Assembly: GCA_018971685.1 (NCBI GenBank)
Contig: JAGXAG010000006.1
Coordinates: forward strand, 62 to 64,061
DNA: 64,000 nucleotides
From: Patescibacteria group bacterium
GTDB lineage: Bacteria; Patescibacteriota; Minisyncoccia; Phycocordibacterales; PALSA-1337
Direction: 5' to 3'
Part shown: positions 34,987 through 36,717 of the stretch, one piece after another
Layout of the letters: each line of letters begins with the position of its first letter
Numbering within the stretch: the stretch's first letter is position 1
Program-made: the position numbers and the translations under genes
Notes under the pieces: generated by a model
Database searches by the model: none
Told to the model about the DNA's origin: nothing
Seen by the model: only the letters and a program-made list of their open reading frames with translations

Positions 34987-35041
34987 TCACTTTCGAGATT
35001 GAATGCAATCTCGGCCTCACAGAAATGTGGGGCACTCTAAT

Positions 35042-35089
35042 GGATTCACGACACGGCGTCGCGGATCCTGAAAGTTTCAGTTCTTTAAA
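35042..35089 (+). promoter_or_regulatory. Conserved leader module copy 1 (GGATTCA-hairpin-GCGGATCC-TGAAAGTTTCAGTTCTTTAAA)
   Basis: Shares its 3' block and architecture with copies at 35747-35809, 36206-36254 and 36613-36669. The RBS AGGAGTAGTGAATG follows. Confidence 0.5.
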
Positions 35090-35112
35090 CCAAAATACGG
35101 AAGGAGTAGTGA

Positions 35113-35706
35113 ATGAATTCGAATCAAGTTCTGATCTGGCTGAGCAGCCTCATTGCGCTGCTCCTGTACTATCCACTGATCTCCGGAATCCTCAAGGGCG
35201 AAATTAAGCAAAGTGTCGCCACATGGATCCTCTGGGTTTCTCTGGATACGATTGCCCTCGTCAGCATCATCATGCAAAAAGGCAACTATCTGCTTCTGGT
35301 GTTCTACTGCACCTGCGGCACTATAGTCACCTTATCCCTCGTTTACAAGCGACTGTTCAGTTGGACAAGATTCGAGAGCTTTGTTCTCGGACTTGTTGTC
35401 ATCTGTCTTGTTGTTTGGGGCTTGAGTGGATCGAGGTGGGCTACAATCGCAAGCACTATCGCCGTGTGCATTTCCGGTGCTCCGCAGATCCGTGATTCAT
35501 GGCGGACACCTGATCGGACTACCGGATTGATCTACATGGGATACGTTCTCGCGAATAGCCTCTCCTTTTTCGGAGGCAAGACGTGGACGATCGAAGAGAG
35601 ATTCTATCCGGGAATGATGGCGCTTCTTTGTCTGACGATTGCTACGGCGTCGTTCAGGAAGAAAGACCAGAAGTCTCCGGTGATCTCCGTAACCGCGCCG
35701 CTTTGA
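35113..35706 (+). CDS. Hypothetical polytopic membrane protein (island cargo 2)
   Basis: Five or six TM helices, no motifs. Confidence 0.5.
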   Translation: MNSNQVLIWLSSLIALLLYYPLISGILKGEIKQSVATWILWVSLDTIALVSIIMQKGNYLLLVFYCTCGTIVTLSLVYKRLFSWTRFESFVLGLVVICLVVWGLSGSRWATIASTIAVCISGAPQIRDSWRTPDRTTGLIYMGYVLANSLSFFGGKTWTIEERFYPGMMALLCLTIATASFRKKDQKSPVISVTAPL

Positions 35707-35746
35707 AAAACGCGCAACCCGGGTAATATGTTAGCGGCATATTACC

Positions 35747-35809
35747 CATTCAACTGGATTCATGATGGTTAGTCATGATCGTGGATCCTGAGAGTTATAG
35801 TTCCTTCAA
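35747..35809 (+). promoter_or_regulatory. Conserved leader module copy 2
   Basis: Hairpin GGGTAATATG/CATATTACCC at 35720-35746, then CATTCAACTGGATTCATGA...GTGGATCCTGAGAGTTATAGTTCCTTCAAA. Confidence 0.5.
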
Positions 35810-35829
35810 ACATCGAACCCCTTAATCGT

Positions 35830-36174
35830 ATGGACGAATATGATGCAGTAAGAGCTGCGTCCGATTGGGGCTATAGGTTGGCTGACGCACACAAGTCGCA
35901 GGCTCGAATGTGTTCTGACACTCAACGCACGGAGGCGTGCCGGGAATCAGCATATGTTTCGATGTCTGGATCCTATGTAAGGATGGCTAAAATGGTTGTC
36001 GGGTTTACCAAAAGCGCTCCATATTCAAGTGCTACCGATGCGACTTTGGCGGTTATCTGCCAATGTCCAGGGTGCAAGGAGTTGTATTGGTACCACATCA
36101 ACAAGGAAGCCGTCCAAGCATTTGTGTTGCATTGCCCATCGTGGCCGCCGGAGCAGAAAGATAAGTTTAAGTGA
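35830..36174 (+). CDS. Hypothetical Cys-rich small protein (island cargo 3)
   Basis: CQCPGC...C zinc-ribbon-like spacing. Confidence 0.45.
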   Translation: MDEYDAVRAASDWGYRLADAHKSQARMCSDTQRTEACRESAYVSMSGSYVRMAKMVVGFTKSAPYSSATDATLAVICQCPGCKELYWYHINKEAVQAFVLHCPSWPPEQKDKFK

Positions 36175-36180
36175 TGTTTA

Positions 36181-36254
36181 GGGGCAAGGTTCTATTCCTT
36201 GCCCCACTCAATTGAGTCTACGACTGAAGTCGCGGATTCATAGAGTTCTTTGAG
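36181..36254 (+). promoter_or_regulatory. Conserved leader module copy 3 (hairpin plus conserved block)
   Basis: GGGGCAAGG-ttctatt-CCTTGCCCC, then ACTCAATTGAGTCTACGACTGAAGTCGCGGATTCATAGAGTTCTTTGAG. RBS AGGAGTGAAAATG. Confidence 0.5.
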
Positions 36255-36278
36255 TCGACAATTCAACCAGGAGTGAAA

Positions 36279-36578
36279 ATGAATATTGAAATGCATGGAC
36301 TGCCGGATGATGAAGGCATTGTGTCCAACGTTGGCGAGGCAATCTGGCGTCAGCTCATTGTTACGCTGCCGGCGGCAGAATCGCGAGAATGTGCGGTGAC
36401 GAACGTCCCCTCACATTCGTTCAACCACGAGGGTATGCGTGTGCCGTTCCTGCGAATTTATTCTGACAAGAAGGCTGATTTCGCAACGGCTCGCAAACTG
36501 CTCAAACCTATCCGCTTGCCGGGCACGCAAAAGAAATTTGTCGAATGTGTGCTCCTCGCAGATTGCTGGGAAGAATGA
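36279..36578 (+). CDS. Hypothetical small protein (island cargo 4)
   Basis: The track start 36273 is GTG; ATG 36279 sits at the conserved spacing from RBS AGGAGTGAA. Confidence 0.45.
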   Translation: MNIEMHGLPDDEGIVSNVGEAIWRQLIVTLPAAESRECAVTNVPSHSFNHEGMRVPFLRIYSDKKADFATARKLLKPIRLPGTQKKFVECVLLADCWEE

Positions 36579-36587
36579 GTGTACAGG

Positions 36588-36669
36588 AGCAAGGTCCAAT
36601 CCCTTGCTCCACTCAATTGGATTTACGATCATGACGATCGCGAATCCTGAGAGTTCAGTTCTTTAAATA
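36588..36669 (+). promoter_or_regulatory. Conserved leader module copy 4
   Basis: GGAGCAAGG-tccaatc-CCTTGCTCC, then ACTCAATTGGATTTACGATCATGACGATCGCGAATCCTGAGAGTTCAGTTCTTTAAA. A second hairpin GGTGTA...TACACC follows, then RBS AGGAGTGAATATG. Confidence 0.5.
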
Positions 36670-36717
36670 CGGTTTTAATTAGGTGTACCGAAACAATACA
36701 CCAGTTTAGGAGTGAAT

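Follow-up and report, generated by a model that had tools for sequence, protein, structure and literature searches.

Conserved hairpin elements between unrelated small genes in candidate-phyla-radiation bacteria and their possible role as RNA processing signals

Introduction

Why should one noncoding module stand repeatedly between genes that are unrelated to each other? The question is raised by a stretch of 64,000 nucleotides from a Patescibacteria group bacterium (assembly GCA_018971685.1, contig JAGXAG010000006.1, positions 62 to 64,061; the whole stretch is called the window below). A first-pass annotation, made from the sequence alone, had noticed in it four consecutive intergenic spacers of common hairpin architecture, each followed by a small open reading frame (ORF), and had compared them to cassette systems with a conserved 5' leader, among them the integrons. 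Here we describe the element in the window and in other contigs of the candidate phyla radiation (CPR). The reading we prefer, with about as much confidence as doubt, is that it is an intercistronic RNA processing or stability signal, cut by a host ribonuclease (RNase) or by itself, and doubling as homology for recombination. Equally balanced is our confidence that it represents an uncatalogued structured RNA punctuating the polycistronic transcripts of small accessory-gene operons in CPR bacteria.

Results

Detection and structure of the element

A covariance model, R1, was built from 32 copies and searched against all 64 kb of the window on both strands, with the filters off. The four spacer copies were matched with 74.5, 59.2, 55.7 and 47.7 bits (E 2.5e-22 to 2.2e-13), and nothing further in the window was better than E 0.19, a value given by the antisense strand of copy 4. 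All four spacers could be aligned by MAFFT, and the fold of each window copy, compared with shuffled sequence, had a z-score of -3.3 to -5.9. The shared module was thus borne out by the alignment, the model scores and the folds. The covariance-model search, which the first-pass annotation had suggested, yielded these four copies in the window and about 40 more in CPR contigs. The presence of only four copies in 64 kb, in a single operon, argues for an island-specific element and not for a generic promoter or ribosome binding site (RBS) context.

The element consists of two abutting parts, a variable hairpin (hp1) and a conserved irregular hairpin of approx. 18 bp. Hp1 is stable (median 9 bp, -14 kcal/mol), its sequence is unrelated from copy to copy, and in 34 of 39 copies it ends on the very base before ACUC, leaving a gap of 0 nt. 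The conserved hairpin opens with the box ACUCAAYUG and ends with UGAGAGU. From its base upward it is made of P2 (ACUC/GAGU), a 2x1 loop (AA/A), a C-G pair with a U.U mismatch, P3 (GGAUUY/GRAUCC), a mismatch that is usually A.C, and a variable, covarying P4; its length ranges from 41 to 53 nt, and an AGNUCUUUR tail usually lies 3' of it. In a second subtype, GAGNCN/NGNUUC with the loop AUA, were placed window copy 3 and three copies of locus L016; spacer 3 of the window reads GAGUCU...GGAUUC and has AUA where the others have UGA. Spacer 1 deviates by ACUCUAAUG and GAAAGU.

The conserved hairpin is supported by covariation. Among 37 copies 95.6% of the cells were paired and 11 of the 16 pairs showed changes on both sides, a value reached by 0 of 500 shuffles, while slid controls gave 27-47%. 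Examples are the A-U to C-G changes of P2 in L034 and L053 and the replacement of G12-C48 by A-U in one copy. A pseudoknot between the hp1 loop and the element was rejected, the pairing being inconsistent among the copies.

In a subfamily (window 34989-35013, L048 and L016 7168-7200) an ACUUUC(A) box and a small GAGAUUG/CAAUCUC hairpin stand 5' of hp1. The box is complementary to UGAGAGU; it may be what remains of half a copy, or it may provide another closing helix. A closing helix of ACUUUCA with UGAGAGU, leading to a hammerhead-like three-way junction, was rejected as a general structure, since it is confined to this subfamily.

Several details of the first-pass annotation had to be corrected. 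The hairpin upstream of the conserved box had been called gene-specific; it is indeed a strong hairpin, but strict specificity could not be upheld, since the hairpins of spacers 3 and 4 are homologues and show compensation, G-C being replaced by A-U. Their family (GGAGCAAGG...CCUUGCUCC) recurs by other genes in L020, L034, L040, L044 and L050. The RBS and start string AGGAGTGAA(A/T)ATG, thought to be identical in three of the four spacers, is exact in spacers 3 and 4 only; spacer 1 carries AGGAGTAGTGAATG and spacer 2 has neither form. In the leader of the first ORF a GGAATC/GATTCC hairpin, expected at about 34283-34303, was found at 34278-34296, but it has no flanking boxes and no R1 match, hence it is not a copy of the element. 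The box TTCAATTG at 27770, near an inverted repeat upstream of ftsE, turned out to be a chance occurrence (7 in the window against 4.7 expected). The repeat itself, long and near-perfect (aaaatcccttgctc ... gagcaagggatttt, 27668-27769), occupies the intergenic stretch after the gene that ends at 27666 and is unrelated to the element.

Position of the element in the operons

The region 34.2-37.2 kb of the window holds five ORFs, all on the same strand, in the order promoter, five genes with four elements, terminator:

34208..34237, + strand: sigma-70-type promoter, TTGACT-18-TATAAT with TG extension, 11 of 12 matches; the sole strong promoter of the array
34375..34986, + strand: ORF1, 203 aa, no known family
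34989-35013: ACUUUC box and small additional hairpin upstream of copy 1
35014..35092, + strand: element copy 1, 55.7 bits; hp1 35014-35033, box and irregular hairpin 35034-35075, then the tail AGUUCUUUAAA
35113..35706, + strand: membrane protein gene, 197 aa
35721..35812, + strand: element copy 2, 59.2 bits, conserved hairpin with long P4; hp1 35721-35747
35830..36174, + strand: Cys-rich ORF, 114 aa, no known family
36181..36262, + strand: element copy 3, 47.7 bits, variant subtype (GAGUCU/GGAUUC, loop AUA); hp1 36181-36205
36279..36578, + strand: ORF, 99 aa; its ATG at 36279 is preceded by GGAG, and a GTG upstream falls within the RBS
36586..36670, + strand: element copy 4, 74.5 bits, nearest to the consensus; hp1 36586-36610
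36718..37134, + strand: ORF, 138 aa, final gene of the operon, without an element after it
37149..37185, + strand: intrinsic terminator closing the operon (A-tract, hairpin, U-tract), fold -16.3 kcal/mol, unflagged by a simple terminator scan

The scan called no sigma-70-like promoter and no terminator inside any window module; a single promoter and a single terminator bound the transcription unit to which all four copies belong. The ORFs downstream of the elements are mutually unrelated by clustering, as had been stated before, and none of the five window ORFs was matched in Pfam, NCBIfam, PHROG or PADLOC. By BLASTP clustering a homologue of the 197-aa membrane protein was found in L006, where the gene is followed by the same hp1 family.

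The same arrangement was observed elsewhere. All 39 copies examined were sense-oriented and lay between co-directional ORFs. In most of them 28-134 nt separate the upstream stop codon from the start of the model, and hp1 begins a few nt past that stop, while the next start codon follows the element after 10 to about 170 nt. Since hp1 comes just after the stop, abuts the conserved hairpin in 34 of the 39 copies and leaves so variable a distance to the start, the element is better described as intercistronic and 3'-anchored. Thus the idea of a conserved intergenic module stood, but its position as a 5' leader did not: the element belongs with the 3' end of the preceding gene. The flanking ORFs are very diverse (57 ORFs fell into 49 clusters), and only GNAT, EamA half-transporter and resolvase fragment were recognisable as products by Pfam, PADLOC, PHROG and NCBIfam. 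No enzyme linked to the element was found in the neighbourhoods: no family was common to more than 3 of the 145 neighbouring proteins, there was no integrase among those listed and no shared recombinase, and no transposase was found. The operon of L016 is composed of a promoter, seven genes and a terminator, its intercistronic slots being filled by four elements and one hammerhead ribozyme. In both complete operons, that of the window and that of L016, the last gene has no element and is followed by the terminator, an n-1 pattern.

Hammerhead ribozymes in the same position

The only intercistronic gap of L016 without an element contains a type III hammerhead in sense orientation (39.4 bits, E 2.9e-6). 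Its core is complete (GUC, CUGAUGA, CGAAAC) and a stable hairpin stands 1 nt upstream of it. Type III hammerheads were found between the genes of the same kind of operon at four places:

L016 5808-5880, + strand
L069 9883-9955
L071 1074-1146
L067 166-209

In these operons they score below the Rfam gathering threshold, with complete cores; the L067 copy appears to be without the stem I hairpin. The diverged hammerhead of L067 precedes a homologue of the same L016 gene (71% identity), with an element downstream, and in L066 an 85% homologue of that gene is promoter-proximal. The leader motif AGUUCUUYR comes after the element, after the hammerhead (L067) or after the promoter (L066). Since it follows each of them, element, hammerhead and promoter share one slot, and the filling of this slot by a hammerhead in the sister operon L016 makes the element a probable RNA cutting signal.

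The element itself is not a hammerhead. This identity was rejected, as there was no Rfam match at E<10 and CUGAGAG stands for CUGANGA, with A and G in place of G8 and A9.

A non-cleaving function of the same RNA was weighed against cutting. Hp1 would attenuate transcription and the conserved hairpin would bind a factor tuning read-through, stability or translation of the next gene; alternatively the whole could be a stop/start module like the PeSLs of phage T4. The base identities of P2, P3 and the AA/A loop are conserved, as in protein-binding sites, and the box after hp1 of the variant subtype is U-rich (ACUUUAUUG) and was flagged as terminator-like by the scan (L016, borderline). PeSLs are composite stem-loop and promoter motifs which flank orphan genes and mediate shuffling (PMC2839356, PMC4122927); the element resembles them as a conserved composite noncoding module beside orphan genes, giving homology for modular shuffling. 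However, a PeSL has an early promoter, and hexamers at 16-18 bp spacing were not detected in any module; fixed promoter spacing is incompatible with the 41 to 53 nt over which the hairpin length varies. The element resides in a CPR chromosome, and no match was found in the phage collections. Nor does an intrinsic terminator describe the element: hp1 of the main subtype precedes ACUCAAC and not a U-tract, and no terminator was called in the window modules. Direct control of the RBS is unlikely because of the variable distance to the next start, and the hammerhead in the equivalent slot suggests cleavage. Taken as a whole this explanation appears rather improbable to us.

Exchange of genes around the element

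Pairwise comparison of the loci confirmed that the cis element, rather than a gene, recurs, and that genes are shuffled around it between genomes. Window 34197-34988, comprising the promoter and ORF1, is homologous to L054, where the gene stands alone and is followed by a terminator; the ORF1 protein is 93% identical to this stand-alone copy. Further homologues of ORF1 are likewise stand-alone units of promoter, gene and terminator, and the homology with the stand-alone copies starts at 34197; that with L054 stops 2 nt past the stop codon. Pairwise breakpoints occurred at three positions: before hp1, at its junction with the conserved hairpin, and just after GAGAGU. Chimeric junctions were seen, e.g. 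in L014b as compared with L017 and L048. To judge by these alignments, the breakpoint pattern fits recombination at, or spread of, a noncoding module and is unlike a single crossover point.

If the hairpin folded in single-stranded DNA, a site-specific recombinase might capture and reshuffle the genes as cassettes, as at integron attC sites. Both are structured repeats which separate unrelated promoterless small genes in one orientation, and both have a conserved hairpin base and a variable top. The make-up of the arrays (small genes on one strand, most of them orphans, with GNAT and a small transporter among them), the match of ACTCAAC to the attC inverse core RYYYAAC, the break of inter-array homology at the element with the chimeric junctions, and the location of arrays in islands beside tRNA genes, where L050 and possibly the window retain remnants of a serine recombinase, would all agree with this. 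The comparison, proposed in the first-pass annotation, nevertheless fails the defining tests. For the attC boxes (RYYYAAC ... GTTRRRY) the R''/R' helix was 62% paired, as against 97% for the covarying ACUC/GAGU helix, and one of its positions never pairs; the GTT after the hairpin is variable, with GAGAGG, GAGAGTA and GAGAGTC occurring. In the neighbourhoods no integrase was found among the shared families listed, and no common recombinase family, and the final gene of the complete operons lacks the site that would follow every cassette. Besides, there are three breakpoints instead of one crossover point, and hp1 has no counterpart in attC. We consider an integron-like site very unlikely.

A selfish repeat was also considered, that is, a unit of approx. 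100 nt, non-autonomous in the manner of MITEs or PATEs, or else a gene-converting repeat, which spreads between intergenic sites without benefit to the host. Hp1 and the hairpin are the sole segment shared by otherwise unrelated flanks in L006/L037 and in window copy 1/L048, and in the subfamily with the upstream box ACUUUCA is inverted-complementary to UGAGAGU, like a terminal repeat. Against this, the copies are not dispersed in both orientations as REP, BIME or MITE sequences are: they were sense in 39 of 39 cases, stood only between co-directional array genes, and in the 64-kb window were restricted to one operon. Target-site duplications were not seen, there was no transposase nearby, and since the sequence of hp1 is not conserved, its recognition by a transposase is impossible. 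In our estimation this, too, is improbable.

Two further modules were observed by these genes. A promoter module (CTRGACAG-N3-TTGAC...GCTAYAMT) precedes different genes at window 34197-34237, L054 ~9823-9865 and L066 ~1975-2015; its recurrence from genome to genome suggests that promoters, too, are moved about as cassettes. A second conserved structured leader, of the form UUCGUCAUAGCAG-AAAGC-[covarying inner hairpin]-UUCUCUGCUAUGACGAAAC, lies about 25 nt past the main element in L006 (~1540-1610), L007 (~6995-7065 and ~7650-7720), L018 (~7525-7595), L031, L038, L040 and L044, and directly 3' of the promoter in L066 (~2025-2095). It had no Rfam match where scanned and is absent from the window.

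Distribution of the element

A scan with the exact pattern, one genome per species, found the element in seven CPR assemblies (Moraniibacteriota, Taylorbacteria, two Saccharibacteria, Paceibacterota and two unnamed), and the scan of metagenomes added about 20 further true loci. Several loci carry 2-4 copies at a spacing of 0.4-2.1 kb. Eight further pattern matches (L004, L008-L013 and L015; Flavobacteriales and one Nitrotoga-labelled bin) were rejected as a coincidence in a conserved protein-coding gene, which is a caution against pattern-only searches. In viral contigs the strict pattern had 0 matches; three matches of the relaxed pattern did not fold, scored about 20 bits or less and were attributed to chance. 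Annotated phage and plasmid collections contained no match to the element.

With Rfam, at gathering and at permissive thresholds, no family was placed on the element in the window region and in 20+ related loci, and no Rfam ribozyme model was found on it even at E<10. Models of the twister, twister-sister, pistol, hatchet, HDV-like and hairpin ribozymes gave no match, although permuted forms would escape them. Literature searches by sequence words and by topic retrieved no description of it. The element is a new family in sequence and structure, inside a known functional category.

Surroundings of the arrays

Disrupted serine-recombinase genes flank the arrays, possibly at window 33285-33863 (- strand), beside tRNA-Gln (33274-33345), and at L050 4240-5365, where a membrane-protein fragment continues into a fused Resolvase domain, with a Zn_ribbon_recom ORF next in line. 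The window ORF 33285-33863 is only weakly similar (E 0.006) to an ORF of no known family beside the L048 array. Window 37178-40277, which ends at tRNA-Ser, is low in GC (38-44% as against about 50%) and contains genes for a GH125 mannosidase and for NUDIX and DUF4238 proteins. The entire interval from tRNA-Gln to tRNA-Ser looks like a variable island. A DUF4238-like gene, recognised from the N-terminal sequence, also lies beside the L050 array.

Discussion

The processing signal that we favour would work as follows. The RNA would be cut at or beside the conserved hairpin, either by a host endoribonuclease specific for double strands, e.g. RNase III, as at the intercistronic sites of phage T7, or by the element RNA itself. 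The upstream mRNA would be left ending in hp1, by which 3' exonucleases would be blocked, and the downstream mRNA would carry structure at its 5' end, together with the conserved AGUUCUUUR leader. As a secondary effect the element may give homology for the swapping of genes between arrays, as nothing else is conserved between these genes, which are otherwise unrelated.

The processing signals for RNase III between the cistrons of phage T7 were reportedly described by Dunn and Studier in 1983. They are similar irregular hairpins with an internal loop, situated between the cistrons of one long transcript, and their cutting leaves a protective 3' hairpin on the upstream mRNA; by analogy the same may be proposed for the element. 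Its predicted helix of ~18 bp with an asymmetric loop has a geometry compatible with an RNase III signal (an irregular double helix of about two turns). Unlike the T7 signals, the element is found in CPR chromosomal islands, has an additional abutting hairpin of arbitrary sequence and is conserved in sequence over several CPR lineages.

Self-cleavage is suggested by other likenesses. Like the hammerhead, twister, hatchet and pistol ribozymes, the element is intergenic, sense-oriented, placed among small genes of unknown function and near a hammerhead (PMC4604424, PMC4604425), and ribozyme genes are known to cluster with other ribozyme genes (PMC4604425). The hatchet has a non-conserved hairpin, P0, immediately 5' of it (PMC4604424), which is resembled by hp1 just 5' of the element and likewise by the hairpin 5' of the L016 hammerhead. 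Differing from the known classes, the element is simpler, a single irregular hairpin, which matches no Rfam ribozyme and has no hammerhead core. That it constitutes a new ribozyme class is, in our view, an unlikely but not negligible proposition.

Several observations weigh against processing of the RNA. Cleavage at the element we infer from its position and by analogy, and the association with hammerheads is known from a single gene family, in two lineages. For an active site the conserved part, in essence a single irregular helix, is small, and the conserved base identities of P2 and P3 could equally be explained by recognition by a protein or of DNA. As for the strand that folds, 25 of 37 copies gave a slightly better fold in the sense than in the antisense orientation (p = 0.01), and the sense strand had 37 G.U wobbles as against 5 A.C; yet the conserved A.C becomes G.U on the opposite strand in 26 sequences, which leaves the strand ambiguous, and hp1 has no strand bias. 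Since the evidence on the strand is weak, a role in single-stranded DNA is still conceivable. Finally, L006 and L037 are 100% identical over the hairpin, and the fact that the element with its hp1 can be the only shared segment could mean autonomous spread.

At minimum, the element would be a new sequence-specific RNA punctuation, functionally interchangeable with hammerheads and cutting between hp1 and the conserved hairpin, which enables plug-and-play operons of unrelated captured genes in CPR bacteria; we hold this statement to be tentative and on balance doubtful. New self-cleaving ribozyme classes have mostly come from such associations, of a conserved structure near known ribozymes among small genes of unknown function, and the element, from a branch of the bacterial tree that has hardly been explored, is a well-aligned candidate with about 40 copies and strong covariation. 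Even if it is cut by a host RNase, it shows how interchangeable noncoding modules (a promoter, a hammerhead or the element, followed by a shared leader) serve CPR genomes in assembling and reshuffling operons of orphan genes, and it bears on the old question of what purpose hammerhead-type ribozymes serve in bacteria.

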